Shown one piece after another: positions 1 to 57,312 of a DNA stretch of 57,312 nucleotides (position 1 is its first letter; the number at the start of each line of letters is the position of its first letter). The position numbers and the translations under genes are program-made. The notes beneath the pieces were generated by a model, which saw only the letters and a list, made by a program, of their open reading frames with translations, was not told the DNA's origin and searched no databases. Location of the stretch: IMG/VR virus record IMGVR_UViG_3300022725_000257, positions 1-57,312 of that record. One strand, given 5' to 3'. The stretch is from a virus (lineage: Duplodnaviria > Caudoviricetes).

Positions 1-122
1 ATAACGTGGTAGCGTATAACGGGCGCAGAGATTATGAGTGAATTAAAGACTGAAAATATCGAACTAACTGAAACCGAAAACAACGGCAAGTCTGCGTCCG
101 CAGTTGATACGCATTGTTATAG
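1..122. other. attC-like hairpin H (also at 57184..57307)
   Basis: TAAC-gtggta-GCGTAT-AAC-GGGCGCAGA ... TCTGCGTCC-gca-GTT-G-ATACGC-att-GTTATA; ATG at 34 lies in the loop. Confidence 0.85.
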
Positions 123-127
123 CAACG
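1..127. repeat. Terminal direct repeat, copy 1 (identical to 57186..57312); indicates a circular contig
   Basis: 127 nt identical at both ends; length equals a common assembler k-mer, so likely an assembly overlap. Confidence 0.95.
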
Positions 128-576
128 GGGTGCAAAAGGAGCTTATTGAGTTGTGCCACGATGATTTGCTTGAACCGGCAGTTAAACTTCTGAAGCGAAG
201 TGGAAAAATGTGGAAGTGTAGCAATGTGTTTTGCGATTTGGCGACCGCTGCCAGTGAGCAACCTGACGCATTTGGAATTGGCAGCGGGTTCACTTCTTTA
301 GTGGAAGTCAAAGTAACACGATCAGATTTTCATGCTGGCAAAAAAAAGTTTTTCCGCCAACATCCTGAATGGGGGATGGGAAATTACAGATTTTACCTTT
401 GCCCAGAAGGGTTGATAAAGCCGGATGAAATTCCTGAAAATTGGGGATTGGCGTATTGGACTGAAAAAAAAGCAAATGTAATTGTGAAACCCGACTGGCA
501 GGAAAGCCACCAAAAACGAGAAATAGCTTTTGTGAACAGCGTACTCAGACGTATTAATGCTGACGAGTTGCTATAA
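34..576 (+). CDS. PD-(D/E)XK nuclease-like protein (MmcB-like); cassette gene
   Basis: Motif EQPDAFG...LVEVKVTRSDF...GNYRFYLCP. Confidence 0.65.
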   Translation: MSELKTENIELTETENNGKSASAVDTHCYSNGVQKELIELCHDDLLEPAVKLLKRSGKMWKCSNVFCDLATAASEQPDAFGIGSGFTSLVEVKVTRSDFHAGKKKFFRQHPEWGMGNYRFYLCPEGLIKPDEIPENWGLAYWTEKKANVIVKPDWQESHQKREIAFVNSVLRRINADELL

Positions 577-692
577 CGGATCGGCGTTTAAGCGGCGCTG
601 AAATTAAATAACAACTAAAAATCAGAAATAGAATTATGAGTCAGATTACAGAAAAGGACGCGGCAGCGTCCGCCTTGAAACGCTTGTTAACC
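571..692. other. attC-like hairpin I
   Basis: TAAC-ggatcg-GCGTTT-AAGCGG-CGCTG ... CAGCG-T-CCGC-c-TT-G-AAACGC-tt-GTTA; ATG at 636 in the loop. Confidence 0.85.
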
Positions 693-902
693 GCCCGGTG
701 GTATTTACTGGAACATCCGTGGTGCCACAGTAGTCAAGCTGGAACAGCAATATTGGCGGGAAATCCTGACCCACACCTGGGCACTTTTGTTGCAGATACG
801 GAAATGATGATGGATGATTGTGATTTTGAAGATGAAAATCAGCCGAGATCTATTGCTCAGCATATTGTTGACCTACATAATGCAAGCATAGAGGGCGGTT
901 AA
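636..902 (+). CDS. Hypothetical protein; cassette gene
   Basis: 88-aa ORF; stop is the TAA of the closing TAAC. Confidence 0.75.
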   Translation: MSQITEKDAAASALKRLLTARWYLLEHPWCHSSQAGTAILAGNPDPHLGTFVADTEMMMDDCDFEDENQPRSIAQHIVDLHNASIEGG

Positions 903-942
903 CATAGTATTGAGCAAAATTGAAATCCTAATATAAAGGGAA

Positions 943-1452
943 ATGGTTATGAAAAAAGAAATATTACAACGGGTCAAAACGCAGCTCAAAAATAATTGGT
1001 ATGTAGATCAGGACGACATACAAGCCCTTATTGATATTGCTGAACAGGCTGATATCGAAAAGATAAGAGATATCGTAGATGATGAATTGTGGGACGTTTT
1101 TTCAAGCTCACAACTTAACAGGCTTCACAGAGCGTTCGACAGCGCAAAAAAACAATTAGTAAAAGATAAAAAACCGCAGCACACCCCGCACAAAGTGTAT
1201 CAAAGCTTATTTGATTTCTTTCATATAGAGCACAGGCTGGTCTTAACGGAGGGTGAAATGGATGATATTGTGTATGTCGTCAAAGAATTCATAGACCATT
1301 CACATCAAAGATATATCGAGGATACGGCAGAATTTACGGTAAGGATAAAATCACCCGCAGCCGAGGAGACCTATGTGTATCCACTTGATGATTTTAACCG
1401 GTTCAGAAGACTATACAAAAAATTTGTTCGGAAAAAATTAAATAGAAAGTAA
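943..1452 (+). CDS. Hypothetical protein
   Basis: 169-aa ORF, co-directional, tightly packed. Confidence 0.75.
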   Translation: MVMKKEILQRVKTQLKNNWYVDQDDIQALIDIAEQADIEKIRDIVDDELWDVFSSSQLNRLHRAFDSAKKQLVKDKKPQHTPHKVYQSLFDFFHIEHRLVLTEGEMDDIVYVVKEFIDHSHQRYIEDTAEFTVRIKSPAAEETYVYPLDDFNRFRRLYKKFVRKKLNRK

Positions 1453-1455
1453 AAA

Positions 1456-1761
1456 ATGAAAGCACCTGATAAAATATACCTACAAATTGACGAAATAGAA
1501 CACAAAGACTCAACTTTTGAAGCAGTTACTTGGTGCAAAGATAGAATCAACGATTCAGATGTTGAATACATAAGGGTTGATAATGTTCTCAAAAGCCTAA
1601 ATGATGAACTTAAAAAAATGCCTGATGAAGAACTTTTAAATTTTGTAGATGAGATAGAAAAATGGTGTTATTTAGGCATAAATGATGAGCCTCATATAAG
1701 TCTTAATGGCATTATTAGGGCAATAGAAATTCTTGAACAAAAACGCAAAGAAAACTTGTAA
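1456..1761 (+). CDS. Hypothetical phage protein
   Basis: 101-aa ORF, N-term MKAPDKIYLQ...TWCKDRINDSDVEYIR resembles small phage proteins. Confidence 0.75.
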   Translation: MKAPDKIYLQIDEIEHKDSTFEAVTWCKDRINDSDVEYIRVDNVLKSLNDELKKMPDEELLNFVDEIEKWCYLGINDEPHISLNGIIRAIEILEQKRKENL

Positions 1762-1940
1762 TGAAAGAACTTGTATTTGTAACCCTTGATTGGGCAGCGA
1801 ACCCTATAACTACGATTGATGGACAGATTTTGCCCCGAAAAGCAGAGATGTTGCTCAACGGGGACTATTACCCAAACAACCGTGTTGGCGAGTGGCCAAG
1901 GAACCCTAAAACAGGCAAAAAACTTCCTATATATGAGTAA
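1761..1940 (+). CDS. Small hypothetical protein (59 aa, missing from the ORF track)
   Basis: TAATG overlap with upstream stop; MKELVFVTLDW...GEWPRNPKTGKKLPIYE. Confidence 0.65.
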   Translation: MKELVFVTLDWAANPITTIDGQILPRKAEMLLNGDYYPNNRVGEWPRNPKTGKKLPIYE

Positions 1941-2286
1941 TAAAAATAATCCGTATTCCGGTATGAACCCTCTTGATAAATTTCCGCACCCCTTTGATCC
2001 TAAGTACGAGGAAAAAATGAAAAAGTTAAAAAGAAATGACCCCGACAAATTTGTTAATTGGCCGCTGGTAAATGGCAATTATAGTACAAAAAATGGAAGC
2101 AGAGTTACAATATTTGGCAAACGCAATGGATGTAGCCAAGTAGACTTCGATTGGTTTGAAGAAGGTGGGTGTGTTGACTGCATCCCGCAGCCATACCCGG
2201 AAAAGTATGATAATAATGATGTGCGGCTTGTTTGGCACTGTGATGTTTGCGGTGGTGGATCTGCAAAACTATACAAAGATAAATGA
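1933..2286 (+). CDS. Hypothetical protein with two CxxC motifs
   Basis: Start moved to ATG 1933 because 1761..1940 occupies the upstream part; CVDC and CDVC. Confidence 0.65.
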   Translation: MSNKNNPYSGMNPLDKFPHPFDPKYEEKMKKLKRNDPDKFVNWPLVNGNYSTKNGSRVTIFGKRNGCSQVDFDWFEEGGCVDCIPQPYPEKYDNNDVRLVWHCDVCGGGSAKLYKDK

Positions 2287-2307
2287 TATGAATTGAGCAA
2301 TGAGGCA

Positions 2308-2437
2308 GGGTAACGTTGCTGCAATTAAGCGGCGGCGTTAATCAGGCCCGTTGGACTATGGAAACCGTTAATCTAATATTTTAATTGAGACTGTAATAAG
2401 GACGGCCTTGCCGTCCGACTTAAATTGCTTGTTATAT
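2308..2437. other. attC-like hairpin J
   Basis: TAAC-gttgct-GCAATT-AAG-CGG-CGGC ... GCCG-T-CCG-A-CTT-A-AATTGC-tt-GTTA; first 26 nt identical to site C (55385). Confidence 0.85.
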
Positions 2438-2774
2438 GCCGATTGACTATAGCGAATACCCGGAAAATTGGAAAGAGATAAGCGAGTACATTCGTTTTGA
2501 GCGTGCTGGTAACCGATGCGAAAGTTGCGGAGCTGAAAATGGAAAGCCGCACCCTGTTACTGGTAGTAAGGTTGTTTTGACAGTAGCACATATTCGACAT
2601 GAAAAATCGGATGTGAGGTATAACCCTGATGCATATGATCCTGACGATGAGGAAAATAATTTAGTGGCAGAATGCCAAAGATGTCATCTTACAAGGGATG
2701 CAAAGTTGCACGCTCGAAACCGTAAATACGGTCGAAAGCATAACCGTAAAGAACAACTGCGCTTAGGCATATAA
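2436..2774 (+). CDS. HNH-like endonuclease; cassette gene
   Basis: YPENW...RAGNRCESC...LTVAH...NLVAECQRCH. Confidence 0.75.
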   Translation: MPIDYSEYPENWKEISEYIRFERAGNRCESCGAENGKPHPVTGSKVVLTVAHIRHEKSDVRYNPDAYDPDDEENNLVAECQRCHLTRDAKLHARNRKYGRKHNRKEQLRLGI

Positions 2775-2889
2775 CGTGGGAGGCGTAAGCGGTCAGGCAG
2801 AATTATGAATAACGAAAAAGCAAATACTATGAATAAGCAAGAAACTGTAACCGGACAAGAAGCCTGTCCGCTTGACGCCTTTGTTATAG
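2769..2889. other. attC-like hairpin K
   Basis: TAAC-gtggg-AGGCGT-AAGCGG-t-CAGGC ... GCCTG-T-CCGCTT-G-ACGCCT-tt-GTTA; ATG at 2805 in the loop. Confidence 0.85.
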
Positions 2890-3524
2890 CGCAAAGGGAG
2901 GCGCTCGAAGCATTGCGGGAAATGCCCGATGATTGCTGTGATATTTTTACAGACCCGCCGTACAATGTTGGAAAAGATTATGGTGTTTGGGACGATTCAA
3001 TGCCCGATCAAGAATATGAACGGTGGATAAGTGATGTTCTGACTGAATGCAAAAGGGTTGCCGTTAATATGGTTGTTTACGTTCCTAAAAAATGGAATTT
3101 ACTTTACTGGAATGTTCTTGGTGATTCATTTCAGGAAATAATACTCCCATTTAGACCGGCCGGTGCAATACGGTATGGGTATTCAAATCAGTTCAATAAG
3201 CTACTTACAAATGCGAGACCGAAAAGGGAAAAGCCGGTACTCAACGTTTGGGATAATATGCAACAGCCGGGGCTTGGATTCTTTTTTAGAGAGGATACAT
3301 TAGGCAACCCCGGCTACACATCTGAGGCAATTACACGAAGGGCATTGGAACAGCTTTTGAGCCATGAATTTATTTATGACCCGTTTATGGGTGTTGGAAC
3401 TACTGCCGTTGCCGCTGAGAAAGCCGGAAAGAAATGGGCAGGAACTGAGCTTAATCCTGAATTTATTGAAAAAGCATGGACACGAATACATGAATACAGG
3501 AACCAACTTGAACTTGCGCTATAA
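2805..3524 (+). CDS. N6-adenine/N4-cytosine DNA methyltransferase (beta order); cassette gene
   Basis: FTDPPY (motif IV) precedes DPFMGVGTT (motif I). Confidence 0.9.
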   Translation: MNNEKANTMNKQETVTGQEACPLDAFVIAQREALEALREMPDDCCDIFTDPPYNVGKDYGVWDDSMPDQEYERWISDVLTECKRVAVNMVVYVPKKWNLLYWNVLGDSFQEIILPFRPAGAIRYGYSNQFNKLLTNARPKREKPVLNVWDNMQQPGLGFFFREDTLGNPGYTSEAITRRALEQLLSHEFIYDPFMGVGTTAVAAEKAGKKWAGTELNPEFIEKAWTRIHEYRNQLELAL

Positions 3525-3643
3525 CGGTTTAGCGTTTGTGCGGCGCTTTAATAAAGTTAATTAGAATAACAAAATTTATAATCCAATGATTAAGCAAAAA
3601 ATAGAACAAGAAAAAGCGTCCGATACGAAACGCATTGTTATGC
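3519..3643. other. attC-like hairpin L
   Basis: TAAC-ggttta-GCGTTT-GTG-CGG-CGCTTT ... AAAGCG-T-CCG-a-TAC-G-AAACGC-att-GTTA; ATG at 3586 in the loop. Confidence 0.85.
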
Positions 3644-3843
3644 AACCGATTACAGTATGGGAAAAGTTTAGTAAAAAGAAACAAAAGTATGAGCATAACC
3701 ATATTGAAGATGGACACCTTACCGGAGATACACCCATTGCAAGAACTGAGGAGCAGAAAAAAGAATGGGATAATACATATTGGCGAAAAAAGTTTGGTTA
3801 CCTGAAGGATGGAAAAGTAGTTGAAACTGAAATAGCTTATTAG
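3586..3843 (+). CDS. Hypothetical protein; cassette gene
   Basis: 85-aa ORF between GTTATGCAACC and GGTTGCATAAC, starting in the hairpin loop. Confidence 0.7.
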   Translation: MIKQKIEQEKASDTKRIVMQPITVWEKFSKKKQKYEHNHIEDGHLTGDTPIARTEEQKKEWDNTYWRKKFGYLKDGKVVETEIAY

Positions 3844-3846
3844 GTT

Positions 3847-3932
3847 GCATAACAAAAGTTTCTGTTGCAAGCCGGACAAGGTGTGGACAACCTTCATGCG
3901 TTTAGCTTGTCAGCAGGAAACTAAGGTTAGAA
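3847..3932. other. attC-like hairpin M
   Basis: TAAC-aaa-AGTTT-CTGTTG-CAAGC ... GCTTG-T-CAGCAG-G-AAACT-aag-GTTAG; extra T and G on the right arm. Confidence 0.75.
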
Positions 3933-3940: not shown

Positions 3941-4420
3941 ATGAAAATAATATTTTTAGATATTGATGGTGTATTAAATTCTAACGCTTGGTTTAAAAGT
4001 GAAGAATATAATATAAAAGCAAAAAATATGTCTTTTCCTGATACACATCTGGATAAAAAATGTATTTTTAATTTAAATTATTTGTGCAATTTATCTGGTG
4101 CGGATATCGTGATTAGTTCTACTTGGCGTGAATTTGATTATTGTGCCTCAGCTCTGAGGAGAAATGGTGTTACTGGTAATATAATAGGCACTACACCATG
4201 TTTAAGAAAAAAGCTTGAAAACGGTTTATATATAGGCAAAACCCGAGGGGAAGAAATTCAGGCTTGGTTAGATAATAACGGTTACGAATTCTATGTAATA
4301 ATAGATGACTGTTCTGATATGCTTAGATCACAAAAAAAATATTTCGTCCAGATAAATGGAACAGTAGGTTTAACTAAAAATAATGTTTTACAAGCTCTTA
4401 AAATTTTAAATATTGAATAA
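3941..4420 (+). CDS. HAD-superfamily phosphatase (Swiss-Army-knife RNA-repair HAD type)
   Basis: MKIIFLDIDGVL, IVISSTWR, RGEEI, YVIIDD; ATG 3941 preferred. Confidence 0.85.
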   Translation: MKIIFLDIDGVLNSNAWFKSEEYNIKAKNMSFPDTHLDKKCIFNLNYLCNLSGADIVISSTWREFDYCASALRRNGVTGNIIGTTPCLRKKLENGLYIGKTRGEEIQAWLDNNGYEFYVIIDDCSDMLRSQKKYFVQINGTVGLTKNNVLQALKILNIE

Positions 4421-4425: not shown

Positions 4426-4569
4426 ATGCTATATTTTTTTGTAGGTTTTTTGGTGGGTTTTATAACATCCATGTTAGGGCCTAAATTTATTAGATTTTTA
4501 ATATATAAATCACCCAATGACTTGTTAGTTAGTAAAGCTATTAAAAGAGTTGTTGAACACCAAAATTAA
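4426..4569 (+). CDS. Small membrane peptide (47 aa, missing from the ORF track)
   Basis: MLYFFVGFLVGFITSMLGPKF..., starts 5 nt after the upstream stop. Confidence 0.5.
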   Translation: MLYFFVGFLVGFITSMLGPKFIRFLIYKSPNDLLVSKAIKRVVEHQN

Positions 4570-13180: not shown

Positions 13181-13487
13181 CGTTGAAATATTTATATTTC
13201 TTTTTTCTGTCCTCGGGTAATTTACCAATACCAACACCAATGATGTACCACAGTTCATTAAGAACCTCGGCAATTGCTTCCGATTCGGCTTTTGCGTCCA
13301 GGCTTTTGCTTAGGTCGCTGTTGCGGCGGACTCTCGAATAAAAGCTGTCTTTGTTTGCAATATCTCCTGCAAGTCGAGCCAATTCAGACATATTCAATAC
13401 GCCTCGTATGCGCTGTAGAAACCTATAGCTGCGGGGTCGTATAAATTCTTCTGTGTCTACCATTGTTTTTGTTTTGTTTTTACTCAT
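13167..13487 (-). CDS. Putative HTH DNA-binding protein
   Basis: LNMSELARLAG...SFYSRV. Confidence 0.55.
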   Translation of the reverse strand: MSKNKTKTMVDTEEFIRPRSYRFLQRIRGVLNMSELARLAGDIANKDSFYSRVRRNSDLSKSLDAKAESEAIAEVLNELWYIIGVGIGKLPEDRKKKYKYFNDDWR

Positions 13488-23784: not shown

Positions 23785-23853
23785 AAATTCAAATTAAATT
23801 CTGTAAAAGTTTGCAAAAAACATAAATTCTAATGTTATCTTAAAGCGCCGGAA

Positions 23854-24101
23854 TGTTAACATTATTGTATAGAATGTTGACATCTATACTATATATGTTA
23901 ACACAAAATTTAACCTCTGGTGCACGCAAATTAGGCAAACGCAATACTACCTTATACGTACGTATATAGTAGTAGGACAACCCTGTGTGCACATGTTAAC
24001 ATTTACCTTTTAGATGTTAACATTTTTATATCGGTGGTTAACAAATTTACGTTTTTTAGCACATATAGATATAGAATATAGAATATAGAATATATATATA
24101 T
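23854..24101. promoter_or_regulatory. Origin-like / recombination-site-like locus
   Basis: TGTTAACA-type boxes at 23854, 23875, 23896 and 23994, 24015, 24036; central palindrome 23945..23974; AT-rich ATATAGA repeats 24064..24101. Confidence 0.65.
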
Positions 24102-24194
24102 ACTAAAGCTGGTTAGAAATTGGTTTTCAAAAGAGGAAAAATTCCTGAGAGTGAAATATTGCTTTTATAGTTGATAATCTTTAGAATGATACTC

Positions 24195-25942: not shown

Positions 25943-26332
25943 ATGCCATTTTTTGAACCTGTAAATCCCGACCAGCCTCTTGTTAAGCGAATCCGCCATA
26001 ACCGCACGGACACATTCAAATTCCAGAACCAAAGTCAGGATAAAGATGGAAACCCTTTTGATTTTACAGGTATGACTTTTGTAATGGAGATTAAAGACCG
26101 GCGCGGTGGCACTGTTGTTGTAACCATACCAAATGAAAATTTTGCGGTTGAACAAAGTGATGATGGTGCGGCAGCTGGTGTTTTTGATAAGTTTTTAATA
26201 ACTCATCCCCCTGCGGATTTTGCTGATTTAATAAGTGAGCCGTTTGAGTATTACTATGATATACAAATAACTGATGGGGGTGGTGAGCTTTTTACGCCAA
26301 TAAAAGGGCCTTTTGTTATAATAGATGATTAA
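25943..26332 (+). CDS. Virion-associated protein (BppU-N-like)
   Basis: DKDGNPFDFTG...YYYDIQIT...GPFVI pattern. Confidence 0.5.
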   Translation: MPFFEPVNPDQPLVKRIRHNRTDTFKFQNQSQDKDGNPFDFTGMTFVMEIKDRRGGTVVVTIPNENFAVEQSDDGAAAGVFDKFLITHPPADFADLISEPFEYYYDIQITDGGGELFTPIKGPFVIIDD

Positions 26333-29300: not shown

Positions 29301-30111
29301 CTATTATAATTTCGATGATAAGGCGCCTTGGAAAGCTATTGACAGCGCTGGTAGTGAAGACGGCGACATAATAAATTCAATTTACGTACCGGTTGATGGT
29401 ACATATTCTGTTATAAGCGATAACACACTTATAACAAATGGAGTAGATCAAGCCGCAAATATTGGAGCAGAGGATATAGCTTCTGAGCTTGCTAACAACA
29501 TAACGGTAGAGTTTTGGTTTAGGACATCAGACACATCATTACAACGTGTTTTGGGTGTAACAGAAGATATAGGAAAAACTTTATTTGTTATTCATATTAA
29601 CGCTGATGAAACAGATTTAAACGTTCCCGGAAAAGTCCAATTAATAATTAGGGATGAAATCGGAAATATAATGAAAAGGGCGTTTTCAAGCGCACAAACA
29701 ATCAACGACAACAAGTGGCATCACTTAGCTATTTCAAAAGCCCAAAACAAGGATACTAAAATGTATTTAGATGGATTAGAAGTGCCTGTAGCTATAGGAG
29801 AAAACTTAACACCAAACACTTTTAATCCTTCGTTAACTTATCCTATATATTTTGGGGCTGGAAATGTACGTGATGTATCTTTATCTACTCCATTTACAGG
29901 AATGTTAAAAGATCTTAGGATTTGGAAAATAATACGTAATAAATGGGAGATAAGAGACTTTTATCAGAACTTATTACAAGGAGATGAAGATAATTTGATG
30001 CATTACTATAAATTTAATGAAGGCTCAGGAGATGTTTTTACTGATACCGTAACTGGTGCCACTAAAACATTAATTGGTAATGTTTCAGATAATATGTGGG
30101 GGCAGGTATGA
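26332..30111 (+). CDS. FN3-repeat and LamG/ConA-like domain virion protein (putative adhesin/fibre)
   Basis: About six FN3 repeats (APAAPTGL...LSWNANSEPDLAGYNVY...GLTNG..Y.FQVSAVD) then three LamG-like domains (FTIE.WF, WHHVAVT, LYVDG, IDDVRFW). Confidence 0.85.
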   Translation: MAYLRQIFTKIYRASNAFSKIIRANQFLEKTKTRFTVDYTPGAFALEGFDVTGVGNDITLEWIARAEFDNYRVYRSSDNQTFTMIVELGVGVEMYQDNNLTQDTYYYYVVGVLPSGFESLKTDTISVFANEPPGDPVNLAVVAENEQAVLTWDAVDDSNLLEYILYLDGVEVDRTTQTQFTFTGLTNGQQYTFGVQAIDDLSATSGVSDIIDTVADTIAPAIPTGLSVDGADTVADLSWNANSEPDLAGYNVYVDGVKDNGSIVTGTSYQATGLTNNTTVDFQVSAVDGDGNESGLSDIVSEFIEDTVAPAAPVNFTVNDLNGIADLFWDASADGDFKESRVYLDGVFQGVTTSTTFQITGLTVGQQYTYEVSHVDTSDNESSKAQVVSVMADDIAPAAPTGLVAVGENEVADLSWNANSEPDLAGYNVYVNGVKDNGSVITATSYQVTGLTNGASYDFQVSAVDDFDNESPLSAIVSEVIEDTLAPATPTGLTVIPGDTVLDCSWSANSEPDLAGYNVYVNGVKDNGSVITATSYQVTGLTNGVSYDIQVSAIDTSDNESLLSAIVSGTPVVLLAESVGLGVATNGIDQYIDTNQTSYSFFGVAFTIEFYFKTTSTTKSTLLGSVNDGFTTFLQIFINANASQTESADNLVIVFRDDLSNAKTFGTNSPPKSLTDGNMHHLAFTFTEVNDVNLYVDGEKAPLSQASNDTIDPASFVDFENNLTIGARNLRGVIDSFFDGLIHEVRIWDVEKTETQIQNLINSDLVGNETNLVNFYKFSENAGNLTKDAVSGIDGDLVGNTDNIMWSDVSKKTSALFDTDFEQIIINKDVFGGLSEFTIECWFRETSTGSRRGIISNFLSTASVHHLLRSDEGQIQFFLRNAADDQFSVSYNPTTTLVWHHVAVTVSHINNEIKLYVDGVERDSTIITGNPKNPSQERTVLGGEEPSTASSLFFKGYIDDVRFWDDVRTQIEIQTLRKNSLTGGETNLLHYYNFDDKAPWKAIDSAGSEDGDIINSIYVPVDGTYSVISDNTLITNGVDQAANIGAEDIASELANNITVEFWFRTSDTSLQRVLGVTEDIGKTLFVIHINADETDLNVPGKVQLIIRDEIGNIMKRAFSSAQTINDNKWHHLAISKAQNKDTKMYLDGLEVPVAIGENLTPNTFNPSLTYPIYFGAGNVRDVSLSTPFTGMLKDLRIWKIIRNKWEIRDFYQNLLQGDEDNLMHYYKFNEGSGDVFTDTVTGATKTLIGNVSDNMWGQV

Positions 30112-51400: not shown

Positions 51401-52453
51401 GAAGATCCGGAGTGGTATAAATCTATGGCAAAAAGTATAACCCAGATTATAGCTCCACCATTTACTGCCCCCGGTCTTGCTGTCCCAGCAGAGCTTTGGG
51501 CTAATAAAAGTTTTCATACCGGCGCTCCTATTGTATACCGCCGCCTTAAAGGGTTAGAGTCTTGGCGGCAATACAATTCATATACATCGGATTTTTCAAA
51601 AAGAGTAGGTAAAAAACTTGATCTTTCTCCTGCTATGATTGATCATACAATAATTGGTTTCACAGGTCTCTGGGGGCGAACAGCGCTCAACCTTTCTAAT
51701 TCTGTTAACCCGAATGCCCCAAAAAACGGGTTAGACGACACGTGGGTAGCCCGAAGATTTATTCGCTCCTCAGACCGAGGATCAGCGAGCGAGAGAAGGT
51801 TTTGGAGGTCTGCTGCTGAAGATGAGGGAACCTTTATTACTCGTGCTGCGACATTTAAGGTAGAAGTTGAGGCCGCTGGGGTTGAGGCCGGCCAAGATTA
51901 TTATAACAGTTTAGAAGATCATTACAGGATGTATGCTGCACGTAAATATTTCGACAAAGAAATACGTGAACTTGTACCCGGAATGCAAGTGGATCATCCT
52001 CTTGATCATGCACGAAAAGCATCAAGAAAAATATCACAATTTCGCCGGGAGATATTTGATGAACCCGCCGACCCCGATGAAGGTGAAGTTAATGTATTCA
52101 CGAATATGGCCCCCGATAAAAAACAATTGGCTGATGACCTGCTCGACCGCCTTGCTACAAAATATTATCGTAACTCTCTTATCGCAAGTGGCGACCCGCG
52201 ATGGAAAGGAAGAAGTAAATTTGATTTTGAAGAAACCTTAACAAAAATACGTGTAGAGTTCCCCCGGTTGTTTGTTGAGATCAGGAAAAGATTCTCTCAA
52301 GATACTACCCCGATAAACCCACAACGCCAATACGATGTATACCAGCGGTTCATGAACAGTGATGAACTAAAAACCCGCGTTGATCGGCAAGTCGCCGCAG
52401 AGTTAAGGAAAGTACGTAACCGAATTAACATAAGAAACCGCGAAGATGGATAA
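45404..52453 (+). CDS. Large polyvalent/ejection protein with zincin-like motif and LPD38-like C-terminus
   Basis: 2349 aa; ILHEAGH...EGFAEFF; DFGRHG...VPFLNAGIQG...VPKPFEL...ANKSFHTGAPIV...SPAMIDH. Confidence 0.75.
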   Translation: MDELERLFNAIQQTGVIQDLPDLETFRSSLTGNQQAQQNLHQVLSNSDKFTDIPDFETFRQSLFNRQGQPTESPGGSTDPAQPAPALPSTELPDIRNQPFEQRGFNQQTQPDELTPQQRIGGLNLRAQQLERQARESRFTQPDNTRVANPVFQNAARRAREQRDQLLQSLDTGQSRISSAANSLAKGLANTLGTDTIKSIGVVSAITNPFNPAASVSNLANIEENPVFSVGAELGRKVEETFPTNPAFQEEMLTSVLPTGLASIIAFGLGGLATRGLKLGSSLGSGALGALSVSGNEFQRAIDEGADPEEAFGVWLLNLPVGGIEAIPIANSLKKLDEATAGGVRGVLSQGFSGGMEELVQEVGQNFASNAIGKGLVNQTRSLFEGVAEGGAAGFILGGLMRGTTTAIGNQLNKLSAEQQEELKKFQETLNKEIDKSKGSFYQPTGTLFSRQAGDEGRTVIREIDLGPSVVIDPSAPPQVLADQLQNAEQEAQRQRKVQSDAGNTQAVEALEEQIERISFARQELIKETISSPNPNQPVVNDQQLTSEGQELLQRVDSGGQPGFVTNNMRRVAVENGIEVNERTTVEDIIGDLRERQNFPQPQPVSQLESQEGVNPVEASAEILPDIGIKVDSQQLTGAPTTTDLSLSMAVRDNEGNVFTAPREEAPNHLAIFERFDLNVENTDGGGFLTPDGRYLSRNEAAQYQQAVTGRAGAVPGVLFSEDFVPPPPQNEEVETLGGATFVEVTSDGPVVRDITGNPIPENDARATRSLAEFFSTQTSPAGQVQRTQRDSDLTFARRVAQESTNPVQIANELANLEDLQGSQDSEIQNNLRERFEQVTGTELSPQLAAGIQQQTARQNPQPVTLSLSQQEGRVDEGFEVPVGRTLGSRTGQNLSPEIVLGAVDGGEFFDNAASSVESTLAASSRETIVYMTPEQFLNLAGGPTQDSGGLSQDTLIDALESLDEGFDVLPSLNLRTVQGTESMQVSKASHAEIVQVLSDEGVNMIPVKVSHPTIQFSKNRGALRTIFTAHSDNNPEQIADNIGRRETGLQSAIYPSDIDERNIADSGRREIPESGDPGLGEGSRSELIGPARQTAGTGDAQLAGALSRDSGPQERVQDPVRFRDLINEVIKALKINVKKGKLSSSDAIGQFNTSTGQILVKNTEAIDIILHEAGHDIEFRNQDLQGLLRVHAEELIPLKYESAPDIVARQEGFAEFFRLYMLNPKAAEKAAPNFNRDFQKWLQSDPPAYEPGIFDKLEQVRTGHQLFLRQASDQAVDADVRQSPSKVHTFLQVLKENSISDIWNNFKNRAYSLIIGNDRALRLALDRLKQIHFENTGESIDFGPLYDFYKLNRLSIDSYSAAAMDLEHGVMNYHTTKNEGPGLREALEVALGDDWSSQRRREFSGYLVGRRMVNEWDRFFAGELPNRPSKLTKIDYEAKIEFAESENPSFKKAADMINEYNRNMLQKLVDSGLIEQAAANRMQAKIPFYVPLYREQNKEDGIKPFTENAVGLADKARNSLIKAFGGSDKEVIDPIESMMKLTYRFNNAIKHNDTKVALLNSLNIAGRGSAEIGQEIEAFQVTPKTISGEEIKKALSKQSDWAALDELDAELLSLSMLDLDNFDFPDATIFRTSEINEKGRPIIYARVNGKVRAIQLNNNELGMEIYNTLTSQPSKNADIIANSLAYPASVLRTGITTEPSFFIANIVRDQVSAWILTDVGVKPGISLAGDLLTRARENIKGFQGPATKGEGVDEKTQREYSRLYRSFAGISTFNLSAIDDGRIQKEIENLKKKNIVIRRLTSVKAFNELLDLSETGTRLSIFQRAFQKAKKRGLSDREAAIEAGFEARDFIDFGRHGSATLYARRLVPFLNAGIQGLDKATRVLSGEGKLRQVLLPFIKDVNGRPLTPQEQREVTAARKAWLKVMEIGSIGAILAAIYADDEDYNEISPQLKATHWFLPDPTHDPKEPGPRKFIGVPKPFELAVVSNIMENAIEGYRQEDPEWYKSMAKSITQIIAPPFTAPGLAVPAELWANKSFHTGAPIVYRRLKGLESWRQYNSYTSDFSKRVGKKLDLSPAMIDHTIIGFTGLWGRTALNLSNSVNPNAPKNGLDDTWVARRFIRSSDRGSASERRFWRSAAEDEGTFITRAATFKVEVEAAGVEAGQDYYNSLEDHYRMYAARKYFDKEIRELVPGMQVDHPLDHARKASRKISQFRREIFDEPADPDEGEVNVFTNMAPDKKQLADDLLDRLATKYYRNSLIASGDPRWKGRSKFDFEETLTKIRVEFPRLFVEIRKRFSQDTTPINPQRQYDVYQRFMNSDELKTRVDRQVAAELRKVRNRINIRNREDG

Positions 52454-52991
52454 ATATAAAGAAGTTATAGACCAAAACGGGGGTAATTTTACCTTAGATG
52501 AATTTGCTGTTATAAAAGGAACAACGGCTGAAGATATTGATTTCGATCATTTCAGGGCAGATATAAAGTTTCGTGCATGGCACGGTTACCCAACAATGAT
52601 TACTTCTGCATTTCGCCCCGGGGACGATGGCGCTCATGGCGATGGATTGGCAACAGATAAAATATTGTTTTATACTTACCGTGAGCATGTTGTTGAACCT
52701 ATTGTGCAATGGAGGCTTGCGACCACATTCCCCTGGATGGGAGTTGGTTTATATTTTGATTGGTATTTTACCGACCGACAAGGCCGCCAAAGAAAAGCTT
52801 GCGGTATTCATACCGATAGCCTTGTCAATAAAAACAGGCCCCTAAGGTGGATTCGTACAACAAAGATTATTGATGATGAAAAAGTCAGGTTGTATTATTA
52901 TCAAAACCCTCATACTGGTTTGTTTTTTAACCAGAAAACAAATGAACAAATAACTTTAGATGATGCAATCAGAAACTTTTGGACCACATAA
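52446..52991 (+). CDS. Endolysin, peptidase M15-like
   Basis: ITSAFR...AHGDGLATD...GVGLY...IHTD zinc-peptidase pattern. Confidence 0.7.
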   Translation: MDKYKEVIDQNGGNFTLDEFAVIKGTTAEDIDFDHFRADIKFRAWHGYPTMITSAFRPGDDGAHGDGLATDKILFYTYREHVVEPIVQWRLATTFPWMGVGLYFDWYFTDRQGRQRKACGIHTDSLVNKNRPLRWIRTTKIIDDEKVRLYYYQNPHTGLFFNQKTNEQITLDDAIRNFWTT

Positions 52992-53037
52992 TCACGAATG
53001 TTCTGTAACAAATGGTTCGTTAAAATATCATAAGAGT

Positions 53038-53535
53038 ATGTTAAAGGCATTTTTTATTGAACCATTTTTACATTCGGTTAAAGGCATTTTTGAACATATA
53101 TACATAAAGACTATTTTAGGATTAACAGCGCTTCCGGCGTTATTAGCTTTCGAGTTGTTTAACACACCGTCATTGTGGTGGAAGGGTTTGTTGTGGTTGG
53201 TTGTATTAGACTGGCTGTCTGGGGTTATAACGGCGATTTATAACAAAGAATTTGACTGGAATATAGCTATTAGTAAATGGTATCAAGTAGCAAGTTATAC
53301 TATTATTTGCGCATCAGCATCAATCGTTGCGAATACTTTTGGCGGCTACTTTAGTTATTTTCAATATGTAGTGTATGCAACATTATTTTTAAAAGAATTT
53401 GTTTCAATCCTTAAAACTTTTAATGTGCTTTCTTTGATACAAATTACCCATGCATTTATTGTAAGCGATAAAGGAGAATCTGGTATTCGTGAATTTATTA
53501 AATATCTTAACGAACAAAACAAAAAAAAGGAATAA
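53038..53535 (+). CDS. Holin-like membrane protein
   Basis: Several TM segments; LDWLSGV...KEFVSIL pattern; adjacent to endolysin. Confidence 0.7.
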   Translation: MLKAFFIEPFLHSVKGIFEHIYIKTILGLTALPALLAFELFNTPSLWWKGLLWLVVLDWLSGVITAIYNKEFDWNIAISKWYQVASYTIICASASIVANTFGGYFSYFQYVVYATLFLKEFVSILKTFNVLSLIQITHAFIVSDKGESGIREFIKYLNEQNKKKE

Positions 53536-53538
53536 CAC

Positions 53539-53838
53539 ATGGACATAATTACAGAGTTTTTAACCCCAGAAACGATAACTGGAATTATCGGTTTTATTGT
53601 TGTTGCTGTTGCTGGTAAATTAGGCATAGACTTTATCACAGAAATCGAAAAAATTTTTGAAACCATTAAACGAGCTTTTTCAGAAGATAGCGATGAAGGA
53701 TCTGAATTAAGTGAGCCAGAAAAGCAGGTGGTCAAAGATGAACTATTTGACCTTGCCTTAAAGTTTTATGGTAAGTACCGTAAAACAATAACTGGCCGGT
53801 TGGTAAAAGGAATATCAAAATTTAAATTTTGGGGGTAA
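53539..53838 (+). CDS. Membrane-anchored lysis-module protein
   Basis: N-terminal TM segment. Confidence 0.55.
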   Translation: MDIITEFLTPETITGIIGFIVVAVAGKLGIDFITEIEKIFETIKRAFSEDSDEGSELSEPEKQVVKDELFDLALKFYGKYRKTITGRLVKGISKFKFWG

Positions 53839-54341
53839 TGATGGGAAGACCAATTCGCGAATGGGGTATTGTACGTGCTATCACAAAGAAAGTTCCTAAA
53901 CTTGCCGGAGAAGTTGCCGGAGGAATCGTTGAAGTGATAACCGGTGAAAATCCTGTTGAAGTTGTAAAAGAGCGTATCAGTAAAAAAATTAAAGAAGACA
54001 AAGAGATTAGCCAGTCTGATAAAAATGAACTTATTAAACAACTCGAAGAAACGATGTCCTTGGCTCAACTTGAATATAAAGACCGCGTCAATGCCCGGCA
54101 AACAGAAGTAGATCGCCTAAAGCACGGTAAATCCTGGTTAGCCCAAAACTTCCTATATATATTTAGTTTATTTCTGTTGCTTATAGGTACAGGTATGATC
54201 ATAATGATGTTCTTTTTTCATATTCCTGAACAAAATGAAGACATGATAAAATCTGCCGTTACTATATACTACACAGTAGGTCTCTTTGGAATGTTTCAGT
54301 ATTTCTTTGGTGATGTTGAAAAGAATCGTATAGGTAGATAG
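53838..54341 (+). CDS. Holin-like protein with C-terminal TM helices
   Basis: DRVNAR..E motif, two TM segments, YFFG end. Confidence 0.6.
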   Translation: MMGRPIREWGIVRAITKKVPKLAGEVAGGIVEVITGENPVEVVKERISKKIKEDKEISQSDKNELIKQLEETMSLAQLEYKDRVNARQTEVDRLKHGKSWLAQNFLYIFSLFLLLIGTGMIIMMFFFHIPEQNEDMIKSAVTIYYTVGLFGMFQYFFGDVEKNRIGR

Positions 54342-54396
54342 AACACCCTAAAACTGCTTGTAGTGTTTTGAAATACACTACAGGCTTACCGCATTA

Positions 54397-54457
54397 AGCA
54401 GCCATTTTTACCAGGCCCGGTATCCAGCCTGCTGTATAAAAGTGGTTGCTTTTTTTA
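54397..54457 (+). terminator. Terminator closing the late arm
   Basis: AAGCAGCCATTTT...AAAAGTGGTTGCTT followed by a T-run. Confidence 0.65.
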
Positions 54458-54489
54458 TGTCGAATATTTACAATTTTTTACAACAGCCA

Positions 54490-54518
54490 TTGATTTATTT
54501 TTTTATTTTTGGTAAAAA
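54490..54518 (+). promoter_or_regulatory. Candidate promoter reading into cassette array I
   Basis: TTGATT-17-TAAAAA with extended -10 TG. Confidence 0.4.
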
Positions 54519-54550
54519 ACCACCTCCCGATTGGTACAACCGATTGAACC

Positions 54551-54589
54551 GAGACGGCTCTGTCGTCTGACTTAAATTGCTTGTTATGC
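54551..54589. other. attC-like half-site A (right arm only)
   Basis: GTCGTCTGACTTAAATTGCTTGTTAT matches the right arms of sites C and J; no left arm upstream. Confidence 0.75.
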
Positions 54590-54765
54590 TTACAGAAATC
54601 GACAAACTATTTGGATGCGAAGAAGAATACGATAATGTTTTTGAGGCTGAGATAGATCAGGAGCTGCAAGAGGCGTTTGAAGACATGTGGTGCACCTGTG
54701 GAGCCTATGTAATTCGAAATGGAAAGATAAAAAAAGAAGCAGACTGTTTATGTGGCTATGGATAG
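54586..54765 (+). CDS. Small acidic Cys-containing protein; cassette gene
   Basis: ATG within GTTATG; CTCG...DCLCG. Confidence 0.65.
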   Translation: MLTEIDKLFGCEEEYDNVFEAEIDQELQEAFEDMWCTCGAYVIRNGKIKKEADCLCGYG

Positions 54766-54768
54766 TAA

Positions 54769-54863
54769 GCATAAGGTATTTGCAAATAAGCTGCCCGCGA
54801 AAGTCGTAGGTTGCACAAAATAATAATAACTACAAGCAGGTCAGGTTGATACGATTGTTATGC
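54769..54863. other. attC-like hairpin B (decayed: TAAG instead of TAAC)
   Basis: Homologous to site E (TGCAAATAAGCTGCC...CAAGCAGGTCAG), outer stem mismatched. Confidence 0.7.
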
Positions 54864-55387
54864 CTCCCAATTACAAAGATGTATTTTTTATAATTGATTA
54901 CGAAACAACAGGTGTTGGAAAAAATGATGTACCAATAGAGGTTGGTATTATTGTAACAGACTCTGAATGGACTGAACTTGACAGAATGGAGTCTTTAATC
55001 TATTCGGATTATTCAATTCAATTGCCCCCGGACTACTGGGATAAGGCAAAAGAATTTCACGGTATTGATCAGGAAACAATTAAGCATAAGGGAATATTTG
55101 CAAGCCGTGTAGCAAAGAAAATACATGATTTAGCAAAGAAGTGGAATCCAGTTTGTGGTCGTGTAATTCTTCTTTCTGACAATATTCAGTTTGAATGGAA
55201 ACACACACAATGGCTTTTTAACTACATTGATTTAGACGTGACAGACATATTCCATTACTGTGGGTGGGATACTTCATTACTATCATTGTTTACTTCATTC
55301 AAAGACCCATCTGGTACAGATCACAGGGCGCTATCAGATGTTGAGGGACTTTTGAATGAATTAAGGAGAGTAGCTAAGGAGGGATAA
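54860..55387 (+). CDS. DEDDh 3'-5' exonuclease; cassette gene
   Basis: IDYETTG...IEVG...HGI...DT...HRALSD. Confidence 0.85.
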   Translation: MPPNYKDVFFIIDYETTGVGKNDVPIEVGIIVTDSEWTELDRMESLIYSDYSIQLPPDYWDKAKEFHGIDQETIKHKGIFASRVAKKIHDLAKKWNPVCGRVILLSDNIQFEWKHTQWLFNYIDLDVTDIFHYCGWDTSLLSLFTSFKDPSGTDHRALSDVEGLLNELRRVAKEG

Positions 55388-55474
55388 CGTTGCTGCAATT
55401 AAGCGGCGGCACTAACTGAACAGAAATCGAAACTAAGGGCGGCTTTGCCGCCTGACTTAAATTGCTTGTTATAT
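55382..55474. other. attC-like hairpin C
   Basis: Same arms as site J with a shorter loop. Confidence 0.85.
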
Positions 55475-55476
55475 AT

Positions 55477-55671
55477 ATGACGACAAAGGAATTTTTACTT
55501 GAAAAAGAACTGAACTGGACTCGAATAGAGGAAATGCAGGAAGAATTGAAACGGAATCAAAAAACGATTGATGATCTTATAAAGCGTAATGATGATCTAT
55601 ATGCAAAAATGCAGATAATAGCCCAAGACATGCAGAAAAAAGCTGAGGAGCTTGATAAGGTATATGTATAA
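55477..55671 (+). CDS. Small coiled-coil protein; cassette gene
   Basis: ATG just after GTTATATAT; stop is the TAA of TAAC. Confidence 0.7.
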   Translation: MTTKEFLLEKELNWTRIEEMQEELKRNQKTIDDLIKRNDDLYAKMQIIAQDMQKKAEELDKVYV

Positions 55672-55843
55672 CGGGGAGCTTCAACCAATAAAGAATTAAA
55701 AATGAGCAAAAAACTTAGAGAACAATTTGTGAAAGAAACCGGCAAATCTCCTGCTGATTGGGAGATGGACAGCCCTGTATTTCACCCAAAATATGTTGAA
55801 TGGTTAGAAGCAAAAGCCGGTCAGCACGAACCGATTGTTATGC
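55666..55843. other. attC-like site D (right arm intact, left arm not complementary)
   Basis: GCCGG-T-CAGCAC-G-AACCG-att-GTTAT right arm lies inside CDS 55702..56004. Confidence 0.6.
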
Positions 55844-56004
55844 CACAAAATGAAAGTGAGAAACAGGCCTTTTTTATTGTTACTGTTATGAGAAATATGA
55901 ATAAAGATGAGGTTGAAATGCTTTGCGAAAATCTGCTTGCGAGATATGATATTAATTTACCACGATTGATACAGTGTGTAGAGCAAATTAAGGATGTGCT
56001 ATAA
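55702..56004 (+). CDS. Hypothetical two-part protein spanning an attC-like arm; cassette gene
   Basis: N-part ...YVEWLE, linker AGQHEPIVMP encoded by the arm. Confidence 0.7.
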   Translation: MSKKLREQFVKETGKSPADWEMDSPVFHPKYVEWLEAKAGQHEPIVMPQNESEKQAFFIVTVMRNMNKDEVEMLCENLLARYDINLPRLIQCVEQIKDVL

Positions 56005-56094
56005 CGAAATTGCAAATAAGCTGCCTGCGAAAATCGCAACAGCTTCATATTAAACACTAACTGCAAGCAGGTCAGCTTGATTTGCTTGTTATAC
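55999..56094. other. attC-like hairpin E (most canonical)
   Basis: TATAAC-gaaatt-GCAAAT-AAGCTG-CCTGC ... GCAGG-T-CAGCTT-G-ATTTGC-tt-GTTATA. Confidence 0.9.
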
Positions 56095-56107
56095 TGCGAG
56101 GTAGATT

Positions 56108-56437
56108 ATGGGACTTGATTTTGGACATACCTGCCCTGATATAGACAGGGGAATCGAAGCATTTAAGGATGATTTAAAAATGTTTTTGAGCGAAGTAATA
56201 GATGATGTTTGTCCTTTACTCGAAGGTGAAGTGAAAGATGATCTTGTGAAAAGTTACGCTGATGATATTTATAACGAGTTTGGGGGTAATTTTGAGAATG
56301 TCAGAAAAACCAATGAAGAAATGCGAAGTGAAGCGGACAGGCAAATTGGTGAATTACAGGATGAGGTTGGTGAATTACGATCAGAAATAGAAGACCTTAG
56401 ATACCAACTGGAAAATGAAAGGGCATTAGCAGTGTAA
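56108..56437 (+). CDS. Coiled-coil hypothetical protein; cassette gene
   Basis: HTCPDID...ENVRKTNEEMR; stop is the TAA of TAAC. Confidence 0.75.
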   Translation: MGLDFGHTCPDIDRGIEAFKDDLKMFLSEVIDDVCPLLEGEVKDDLVKSYADDIYNEFGGNFENVRKTNEEMRSEADRQIGELQDEVGELRSEIEDLRYQLENERALAV

Positions 56438-56552
56438 CGTGTGAGGCGTAAGCGGCAAGCAGATTAGAAATTTATGGAAGCTAAAAAACTAAATAAGATG
56501 AATGAAACGAAAACAAAGGCTGAAGCTTGTCCGCTTGATGCGCTTGTTATAC
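56432..56552. other. attC-like hairpin F
   Basis: TAAC-gtgtga-GGCGT-AAGCGG-CAAGC ... GCTTG-T-CCGCTT-G-ATGC..tt-GTTA; same family as K; ATG 56474 in the loop. Confidence 0.85.
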
Positions 56553-56827
56553 AACCGGAGATGATTATGAGTAATGGACAAGATAAAGGTAATAACACAT
56601 ATACAGATTACAGTTTTCAAGGTCAATCACCGTTTGCAGAGAATGCGGTATCATTGCTTTTGGCTGACAATTCAAGTGTAAAATATAAAGGCGAAGAATT
56701 TGAGGCAATACAGTTTCATTATGAGTGTCAAGAAACAGAGCAGTGTTTTACTACAGATGAAATTGATGAAATTAACATTAGAATAGTACTCGCTTCTTAT
56801 AGAAATAGAATGCTTTTAAAGCAATGA
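56474..56827 (+). CDS. Hypothetical protein resembling the N-terminal zinc-ribbon of MqsA/YgiT-type antitoxins; cassette gene
   Basis: SPF...YKGEEF....HYECQETEQCFTTDEIDEIN....YR. Confidence 0.5.
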   Translation: MEAKKLNKMNETKTKAEACPLDALVIQPEMIMSNGQDKGNNTYTDYSFQGQSPFAENAVSLLLADNSSVKYKGEEFEAIQFHYECQETEQCFTTDEIDEINIRIVLASYRNRMLLKQ

Positions 56828-56831
56828 GGTT

Positions 56832-56961
56832 GTATAACGGATGGAGCATAACCGGCAGGCATTACAGGCAATGAATTTGAAACAACTAATAACTGAACTA
56901 TAAATCAGCAATAGCTGATGCCGGACAGCTTGCCTGTCCGCTGTTGATGCTATTGTTATAA
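56832..56961. other. attC-like hairpin G
   Basis: TAAC-ggatgg-AGCAT-AAC-CGG-CAGGCA ... TGCCTG-T-CCG-ct-GTT-G-ATGCT-att-GTTA. Confidence 0.85.
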
Positions 56962-56978
56962 ACACACGGAGCGGTAAA

Positions 56979-57173
56979 ATGAGCACAGATGTAGAAAAAT
57001 TAGATTGGGAAAAGGCAAGAGATTATTTGTCTCGATGTGAAGAGGCATATACCGCTATTGGTAGTGCTGGATCATTTGCAATGAATTTTGTGATAACGCC
57101 TTTGCGCGATAGGCTTAATTCAGGTGAAAGAACTGAACAGCTATACAATGAGATTATGGAGATTGCAATATAG
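56979..57173 (+). CDS. Small hypothetical phage protein; cassette gene
   Basis: 64 aa ending SGERTEQLYNEIMEI; bounded by a 13-bp perfect inverted repeat. Confidence 0.75.
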   Translation: MSTDVEKLDWEKARDYLSRCEEAYTAIGSAGSFAMNFVITPLRDRLNSGERTEQLYNEIMEIAI

Positions 57174-57185
57174 CGGAGTGTGTTT

Positions 57186-57312
57186 ATAACGTGGTAGCGT
57201 ATAACGGGCGCAGAGATTATGAGTGAATTAAAGACTGAAAATATCGAACTAACTGAAACCGAAAACAACGGCAAGTCTGCGTCCGCAGTTGATACGCATT
57301 GTTATAGCAACG
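57186..57312. repeat. Terminal direct repeat, copy 2
   Basis: Identical to 1..127. Confidence 0.95.

Follow-up and report, generated by a model that had tools for sequence, protein, structure and literature searches.

The window analysed here, i.e. the whole stretch of 57,312 bp, is a complete phage genome whose ends overlap (positions 2-119 equal 57187-57304) and which encodes a terminase, a capsid protein, a DnaB helicase, a C5 methylase and a 213-aa tyrosine recombinase. Neither tRNA genes nor Rfam matches were found in the window. From about 54.5 kb, across the contig ends and up to 4.47 kb, it carries an array of small genes on the + strand, separated by imperfect hairpins whose outer limits read TATAAC ... 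GTTATA. About 15 attC-like junctions, all on the + strand, can be distinguished. Ten are intact hairpins (C, E, F, G, H, I, K, L, M and N), while S0, B, D, J and T are decayed or core-less, the array starting with a decayed hairpin (S0) and ending with R boxes only (T).

In the part of the array that precedes the contig end, S0 (54530..54587) keeps a 3′ arm of the C/K type and GTTATGC next to a degenerate 5′ arm, and its 3′ R half, read as the reverse complement TGTAAGCATAAC, agrees with the 5′ half of B, GTAAGCATAAG, over 10 bases. The first cassette gene (54577..54765, 62 aa) weakly matches phrog_16785. It is followed by B (54766..54862), a decayed E-type site in which AAC has become AAG; B obtained 25.4 bits (E 0.005) with R1, a covariance model built from ten phage sites in coding-strand orientation, B itself lying outside the training set. 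The next gene (54860..55387) encodes a DEDD exonuclease of the RNase_T family (PF00929, E 7e-12), and its stop codon is the TAA of GATAAC. The intact hairpin C (55383..55473), identified by arm alignment and model, precedes a 64-aa gene (55477..55671). D (55668..55695) is a 5′ half-site consisting of TATAAC and the start of an arm, for which no 3′ arm was found, and it precedes a 100-aa gene (55702..56004). Site E (55999..56094), the one reported in the first-pass annotation and recovered by both arm alignment and model, is followed by a 109-aa gene (56108..56437; phrog_32976, function unknown). Hairpin F (56432..56553) holds in its loop the ATG of the next gene (56474..56827, 117 aa), and the intact hairpin G (56833..56960) separates the latter from a 64-aa gene (56979..57173). 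Hairpin H (57185..57306), repeated at 1-121 by the overlap of the contig ends, carries the ATG of gene 34-576 in its loop.

Beyond the contig end, all features again lying on the + strand, this gene (34..576) encodes 180 aa matching phrog_631, conserved from residue 36, directly after the hairpin-encoded part. Hairpin I (572..698) has three extra bases and bears in its loop the start of an 88-aa gene (636..902), whose end, GGTTAA|C, constitutes junction J (R box only). The following stretch (903..2308) is free of hairpins and holds four genes (943-1452, 1456-1761 and an ORF at 1816-2286 read as two, with an internal ATG at 1936); TGTAAC at 1778-1783 represents a further boundary, used as such in a variant described below. 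In G001, a related phage, a homologue from this stretch directly follows a copy of hairpin N. Hairpin K (2309..2436), of the same type as C, is followed by an HNH endonuclease gene (2436..2774; phrog_1571, E 2e-21), and hairpin L (2770..2888) contains in its loop the ATG (2805) of an N6/N4 DNA methyltransferase gene (2805..3524; PF01555) with a hairpin-encoded leader of about 27 aa. M (3522..3652) likewise contains the start of an 85-aa gene (3586..3843). N (3848..3931), a short intact hairpin, was missed by the model and identified from the arm alignment and its copy in G001. The last cassette gene (3941..4420) encodes a HAD domain of the RNA-repair type (PF18143, E 1e-30), and the array ends at T (4451..4470), a terminal junction TATAAC-ATCCAT-GTTAGGG whose R boxes lack a hairpin core.

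A blastn search of positions 52400-57312 against the phage collection gave no match, and only three relatives of the terminase were found, two of which (L002 and L003) come without sites. Pattern scans of viral contigs yielded 24 loci, one being the relative G001 itself. Among the other 23, all but two contain model sites at E ≤1, and several hold arrays. The sole match of a 19-nt arm pattern in viral contigs, in L004, lies inside an unrelated coding region and was judged to be due to chance.

Strand asymmetry of the hairpins

Site E starts with CTATAAC and ends with GTTATAC, and its 3′ arm, GCAGG-T-CAGCTT-G-ATTTGC, pairs with the 5′ arm GCAAAT-AAGCTG-CCTGC; a re-reading of 55999-56094 agrees exactly with the initial description. 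The outer inverted repeats RYYYAAC ... GTTRRRY, one of the hallmarks of integron attC sites, are present in the array. Of the 14 tabulated junctions, 13 have a 5′ box ending in TAAC, B having TAAG instead, and the 3′ box begins with GTTA at all 12 junctions possessing a 3′ half.

Extra bases were located by reverse-complementing the 3′ arm of every site and aligning it with the 5′ arm of the same site. In all ten intact sites, the 3′ arm of the + strand, opposite the 5′-AAC, has one to four extra bases within the stem. None of the ten has any in the stem of the 5′ arm, in which only the spacer beside AAC is longer. The extra base closest to the R box is a G in eight sites and an A in C and K. 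Another, about 6 bp further on, is a T, seen as a bulge in nine sites and as a T/T mismatch in L; further extra bases between the G and T positions can be read from the arm alignment in five or six sites. The extra T and G that the first-pass annotation had placed in the 3′ arm of the coding strand at most intact sites are found in all ten, G being replaced by A in two of them. The spacers beside the R box are lopsided, with 6-7 nt on the 5′ arm versus 2-3 nt on the 3′ arm (4 + 4 in site N), unlike the usual attC spacer of 5-6 nt on each arm.

The hairpins exceed what chance would produce. The word TTGTTATA occurs 16 times against 4.6 expected, a count reached in none of 100 shuffles. RNAalifold returned 21 pairs for the ten sites, with compensatory changes in 10, and the pairing of the N copy in G001 is kept through a double, compensatory stem change. 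In 10 of 12 sites, the fold of the + strand is more stable than that of the - strand. GC skew was considered as additional strand evidence and set aside: it amounts to +0.12 in the + strand arms, yet the whole coding strand has an equal skew.

In the attC sites described by Nivina et al. 2016 (PMC5027507), the first extrahelical base is usually a G in the L″ box, the last is a conserved T, a 6-bp stem separates the two, and the integrase cuts within the AAC of the bottom strand. The inner repeats of the array, with G then T extra bases opposite the AAC that would be cleaved, display this feature of integron attC sites in all ten intact hairpins. Because their extra-base geometry fits the bottom-strand rule set out in that account, the sequences support the + (coding) strand of the phage as the equivalent of the attC bottom strand.

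Likeness to attC sites of known integrons

The covariance model was applied to three controls. With filters off, a 3.5-kb scan of plasmid R46 ranked the real attC sites as its top four matches (4/4), all opposite the resistance-gene strand, at 9-17 bits (E 0.01-0.5). In the Tetrasphaera phage TJE1, the three sites were all matched, each immediately following an annotated gene of the other strand. In the Desulfobacteraceae integron L049, all three matches share the strand of intI, and each lies a short way downstream of an opposite-strand ORF. Scores on these foreign sites range from 9 to 22 bits and are individually low, their weight coming from the consistency across controls. With default filters the model found a single site in 12 loci of integrase relatives and hence is no general attC finder. 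R46, TJE1 and L049 thus establish a likeness to known attC sites with sequence and structure scored together. The likeness can be seen directly in site L, the 3′ arm of which, in reverse complement, reads TATAAC-AAA-GGCGT[C]AAGCGG[A]CAGGC, a layout like that of the top strand of the aadA1 attC in R46, GTCTAAC-AATTC-GTT[C]AAGCCG[A]CGCCGC. The bottom strands of the oxa2 and aadA1 attC sites are, in addition, similar to the phage consensus GTCCG-CTTGA. Judged by the strand of these matches, the three controls have the classical polarity and the window has the reverse.

Clusters of attC sites lacking an integron integrase (CALINs) are defined by two or more attC sites that share a strand and lie less than 4 kb from each other, in the absence of a neighbouring IntI (PMC4889954, PMC9892861). 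The window has ten intact + strand sites with spacings of up to about 1.7 kb and no IntI in the genome. Its genes do not lie, as in a classical cassette, on the top strand and upstream of their own attC. We consider it probable that the phage hairpins are true integron attC sites, and that the array is a CALIN of reversed coding polarity in a complete phage genome.

R-box halves and mobile units

For each site, the first 12 nt from the 3′ GTT onwards were compared with the last 12 nt, up to and including the 5′ AAC, of the site that follows. Across each gene, the R halves are complementary at 73 of 88 variable positions, versus 32 of 88 for the halves of the same site, and none of 200,000 permutations attained 73 (mean 35, maximum 64). 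At 7 of the 11 junctions, seven or eight of the eight variable positions are complementary, and the paired halves extend to 10-12 nt. The same pattern was obtained in an unrelated phage, G003 (41/48 across the gene vs 20/48 within the site). Each gene thus has one half of a single R box on either side, the arrangement to be expected of a unit that had once been a circle closed there. This pairing is predicted by both polarity models, inverted and classical, and by itself does not tell to which gene a hairpin is assigned.

Read on the coding strand, the mobile unit would comprise C, the hairpin, GTTRRRY, the gene and RYYYAA, with a crossover that separates A from C in the 5′ AAC, frequently just behind the stop TAA of the gene itself; IntI would bind the + strand and cut it at AA|C. 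For the gene starting at 56979, the inverted model had been predicted to give the circle junction GTGTGTTTATAA|CGGATGGAGC, which agrees with the sequence, the junction under the classical model being ...CATTG|TTATAAACACAC. The initial count of units whose stop codon is the TAA of TAAC, 8 of 12, needs correction in its denominator only, the eight being confirmed among 14 bounded units.

Contigs from four public runs of one study, one of which is possibly the source of the window, provided two cases of co-segregation. In run X3, a 541-nt contig contains positions 572-907 with 0 differences between flanks that are both unlike the window; this segment runs from TATAAC through hairpin I and gene 636-902 to GGTTAAC. 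A contig of run X2 passes from 2775, at which the AAC of L has its C, to 3859 through five other letters. The variant lacks exactly the L hairpin, the methylase, the M hairpin and gene 3586-3843, and retains the upstream HNH gene together with an N-like hairpin. A loose end in the same run lies behind 1785, where the contig passes into an N-like arm after TGTAAC (1778-1783). Three further candidates (joints 2336 to 2397 and 2437 to 1, and a loose end before 2401) were rejected as variants, as they result from cross-mapping of sites C and S0 onto K.

Integron integrases and probable recombination in trans

No integron integrase was found in the 57-kb window: the TIGR02249 profile reached 14.6 bits in the search of the window and 28 bits with the 213-aa recombinase, for a cut-off of 265. 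No attI was recognised in the window either. Since the window is devoid of an integron integrase, recombination must take place in trans, and the IntI would be supplied by the host or by a co-infecting phage, for example G003.

The layout of a complete integron, with intI and attI beside the array, is absent from the window and present in G003. G003 is a phage, as indicated by its terminase, portal, capsid and tape-measure proteins, and has no protein in common with the window. It nevertheless carries six sites of the H, G and I types of the window together with a true integron integrase, which scores 341 bits with TIGR02249 against the cut-off of 265 and whose best solved structure is 2a3v (IntI4; E 2.5e-61, residues 10-301). 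The six model matches, the cassette ORFs (RtcB among them) and intI all lie on one strand, the genes running towards intI. The array ends with ...GTGTTTATAAC, followed by 49 nt without a hairpin and then by the ATG of intI. The orientation of intI relative to the sites is that of class 1 integrons, intI1 of R46 and its model matches both being on the minus strand; only the genes of G003 are turned. Seen from intI, the hairpin is on the far side of the cargo in both R46 and G003, a position which in G003 is upstream of the gene.

The nearest other integrases are 43-47% identical to that of G003 and belong to Desulfobacterota and Nitrospirae MAGs. An integrase identical to that of G003 is encoded in L047, labelled as a Balneola sp. 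MAG, which is only a hint as to the host.

Any tyrosine recombinase was detected in 6 of 22 site-bearing viral records and in one of the six records that are at least 90% complete. The five others, which bear arrays and no such enzyme, would agree with the sites being relics, shuffled nowadays only by homologous or illegitimate recombination between conserved hairpins and by no site-specific enzyme. The lack of an IntI in the window, the four or five decayed or core-less junctions (S0, B, D, J and T) and the occurrence of N-type and L014/L023-type hairpins with unrelated flanks point the same way. We nonetheless regard this explanation as unlikely. The near-complete complementarity of R halves at 7 of 11 junctions argues for recent precise events, variants within a single study differ in the presence of entire units, the breaks falling at AAC, and an intact IntI exists in G003, a phage with the same type of site. 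On our preferred reading, that of attC sites recombined in trans, the array would still be active in the phage.

Proposed association of each hairpin with the downstream gene

The downstream genes of five of the ten intact hairpins (F, H, I, L and M) start in the hairpin loop, with a recurring start context GA(A/G)TTATG, and continue across the 3′ arm and the GTTATA box, the frame differing between genes. Half of the units have their start codon and some 20-30 leader codons inside the hairpin. Searches with the cassette proteins in viral and metagenome contigs found homologues outside arrays only. In methylase homologues of this kind, which have no site, the match sets in only at residue 28 or 33, with the start codon some 10 codons before it; the homologue of gene 636-902 outside any array matches from residue 15 and lacks the leader.

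Polarity was determined by an interval test, in which the strand of the longest open frame between neighbouring sites is compared with the model strand. The longest frame is on the model strand in 9 of 10 intervals of the window, 2/2 in G001, 5/5 in G003 and 1/1 in L021, versus 0/3 in R46 and 0/2 in TJE1. The Polaribacter phage P12002L has both of its two intervals reversed, a weak support given model E values of 0.04-1.3. Polarity is mixed or tied elsewhere (L018, 2/5; L029, 1/3; L024, 1/4; L022, 0/1, a tie; L017, 0/1). By this test, reversed polarity appears clear in the window, G001, G003 and L021, and our claim covers these arrays and does not extend to all phage arrays. The interval test supersedes an earlier open-frame heuristic that recovered the classical control poorly; among 32 viral matches, that heuristic had found a frame of at least 47 codons ending at the 5′ R box on the same strand in 28, and an opposite-strand frame of at least 47 codons ending at the site in 12.

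The first-pass annotation had proposed an inverted polarity with the coding strand as the recombinogenic strand, and six agreeing lines of sequence evidence support this proposal. The check that it suggested was which gene a hairpin accompanies in relatives. The two run-contig cases have the hairpin moving with the downstream gene, and two other comparisons do not. Hairpin N and its copy in G001 are bordered by different genes on both sides, and L014 and L023 have in common only the loop and the 3′ arm, their homology ending just after the 3′ GTTATGC. These two cases indicate that breaks at or near the 3′ R box also occur. In the IMG/VR loci taken alone, a given type of hairpin is found repeatedly, each time between other, unrelated neighbours.

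The classical polarity would assign each hairpin to the upstream gene, with a crossover at the downstream G|TT of the + strand and recombination of the - strand. It could account for the end of the L014/L023 homology, for hairpin N being kept in G001 beside a different downstream gene, and for the eight upstream genes of 14 units that stop in the TAA of TAAC, like many classical cassettes. Its difficulties are more serious: the extra bases sit on the wrong arm, the model matches real attC sites only opposite their genes, and a crossover at G|TT would cut the five loop-starting genes, which are read in different frames, from their start codons. Moreover, G003 has no hairpin between its last gene and intI, and the X2 variant drops the core of L and keeps the HNH gene upstream of it, while keeping the core of N and dropping the gene upstream of that. 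We thus hold the classical assignment to be very unlikely, and the sequence comparisons support the reversed one, in which each hairpin belongs with the gene downstream.

The 213-aa recombinase and a possible RNA role

The 213-aa tyrosine recombinase (23143-23784) is the only recombinase in the window and is 100% identical in G001, two facts that would make it a candidate for recombining the hairpins itself. The protein, however, is reduced to the catalytic domain, falls far short of the integron integrase cut-off and is closest to XerH and XerD; its gene lies about 20 kb from the array, beside GTTAAC repeats of its own, and among the 22 other site-bearing records only G001 has it. A search of G003 returned one marginal match (E 9e-4), inside the IntI gene. 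That this enzyme acts on the hairpins seems to us most improbable.

Hairpins working at the RNA level only, as terminators, processing sites or elements of translation control that merely look like attC, would fit the more stable folding of the strand present in the mRNA, the loop start codons of five sites and their recurring context, but this deserves next to no credence given the complementarity of R halves across a gene, for which RNA offers no rationale, a single terminator-like + strand call within the sites (an inner sub-hairpin of E), promoter-like calls no more numerous than in shuffles, the lack of Rfam matches in the window and the linkage to IntI in G003. Hairpins serving as recombination sites may have an RNA role in addition.

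Relation to known systems and significance

Integrons are defined by promoterless genes located upstream of their own attC and read from a promoter beside the integrase. Compared with the class 1 integron of R46 and with the VCR sites and VchIntIA (2a3v), the array of the window shares the AAC ... GTT R boxes, the arrangement of sites on one strand, loops of variable length, the G and T extra bases of the inner repeats 6 bp apart on one arm, and R halves that pair in the circle. It differs by its genes on the bottom strand, by a hairpin that precedes the gene, by loop starts in half of the units, by its uneven spacers (6-7 vs 2-3 nt), by paired R halves of 10-12 nt and by the lack of an integrase. 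An all-reversed array would show that the recombination machinery does not fix coding polarity. Its expression logic would also be different, presumably with read-through from upstream, hairpin-encoded leaders and new units entering at the far end of the operon.

Single antisense cassettes, for example toxin-antitoxin cassettes, are found in chromosomal integrons, where the gene is on the bottom strand of the cassette and has its own promoter within a classical array. In the window, by contrast, the reversal extends to all genes of the array, which are presumably expressed by read-through from upstream. Phages of the T4 type have promoter-stem-loop modules, short conserved hairpins flanking swappable accessory genes, which are thought to move by homologous recombination. 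As commonly described, and in contrast to the present sites, these modules possess neither AAC/GTT boxes nor the extra-base signature nor an integrase.

Clusters of attC sites without an integrase have already been published for phages. The main text of Qi et al. 2023 (PMC9892861) describes them in 17 phages and reports that IntI1 recombines five of six phage attC sites. The array of the window resembles these CALINs by its location in a phage genome, the presence of at least two attC sites, the lack of an IntI and a methyltransferase among the cargo. According to the same text, TJE1 is typical and P12002L has divergent site directions; with our model, TJE1 is classical, and the weak matches of P12002L are on the coding strand. 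The parts of the main text consulted make no mention of reversed gene polarity, and the coordinates of the tested sites are in the supplements. Our literature search found no description of reversed cassette polarity in phage arrays, which is, as far as found, apparently new. In the inverted-integrase group outlined by Cury et al. 2016 (PMC4889954), exemplified by Treponema, the orientation of the integrase gene with respect to the attC sites is inverted. G003 has in common with that group an integrase and cassette genes that point one way. It differs in that its integrase keeps the class 1 geometry towards the sites and the genes are turned instead.

A reason for the reversal could be that the array, and intI where present, stays co-directional with the other phage genes. 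Tentatively, and at slightly less than even odds, these arrays might be considered a separate phage-resident integron lineage, with reversed polarity, frequent loop starts, an integrase that is downstream where there is one, and a cassette pool exchanged among phages. If so, all phage transcription would be one-directional and would expose the recombinogenic strand as the non-template strand. Unrelated phages would swap small accessory and counter-defence genes (methylases, HNH, RtcB, RNA-repair HAD, exonuclease) from this pool, using integrases of phage or host origin. Phages, one of them with its own integron integrase, appear to exchange accessory genes across unrelated genomes by site-specific cassettes. 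Integron finders that expect top-strand genes would misplace the boundaries of reversed cassettes. Since exact junctions are predicted, the reversed-polarity model is directly testable.

Reversed cassettes in two other phages

A reversed-cassette array, with the genes on the equivalent of the attC bottom strand and each hairpin 5′ of its gene, occurs together with a full integron integrase on the contig of an unrelated phage, G003 (G003:31864-36358, corresponding to 8861-13355 of locus L036). The integrase gene lies 3′ of the array and is co-directional with it, the terminase genes follow a short way 3′ of the integrase, and RtcB is one of the reversed cassettes. In G001, a close relative of the window phage, the terminase is 96% identical and the cassettes differ. 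The G001 cassette region, on the minus strand (L012 10264-11349), includes a second methylase type with an NPPF motif, and one of the G001 sites is a very short, classical-looking hairpin of 56 nt with a 3-nt loop.

Sites and boundaries within the array

The 3′ arm of hairpin I, an intact attC-like site, encodes ALKRLL (636-700), and the similar DVLKQ forms the start of an array-free homologue of gene 636-902 (L099 1117-1170). The arm may have arisen partly from N-terminal codons of the gene itself.

At 1778-1790, which reads TGTAACCCT, one variant contig uses the AAC as a boundary, and the bases that follow it resemble a 3′ half able to pair with the 5′ half of the intact hairpin K, AGGGTAAC. 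This segment could be a site whose core was lost.

Regions outside the array

Past the array end, the non-coding stretch 4498-4680 shows ~92% conservation in G001. It is GC-rich and structured in appearance (GCATCGGGGCATCGAGG...GGTGGCATACAGCG...), and Rfam and tRNA searches returned no match for it.

A second non-coding stretch, 23784-24150, separates the small tyrosine recombinase from the terminase. It contains about five ATGTTAAC(A) palindromes as well as an ATAGAAT/TATA tandem run. Its possible roles are those of a site belonging to the recombinase itself, of a packaging site or of an origin.

An unusual G-rich and C-rich patch with CCCCT and GGGG runs (22100-22440), 5′ of ORF 22489-23139, is locally high in G+C within surroundings of 37%. 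A probable receptor-binding or decoration protein of 1259 aa is encoded at 26332-30111; it carries several domains of the fibronectin type III and laminin-G/concanavalin-like types.
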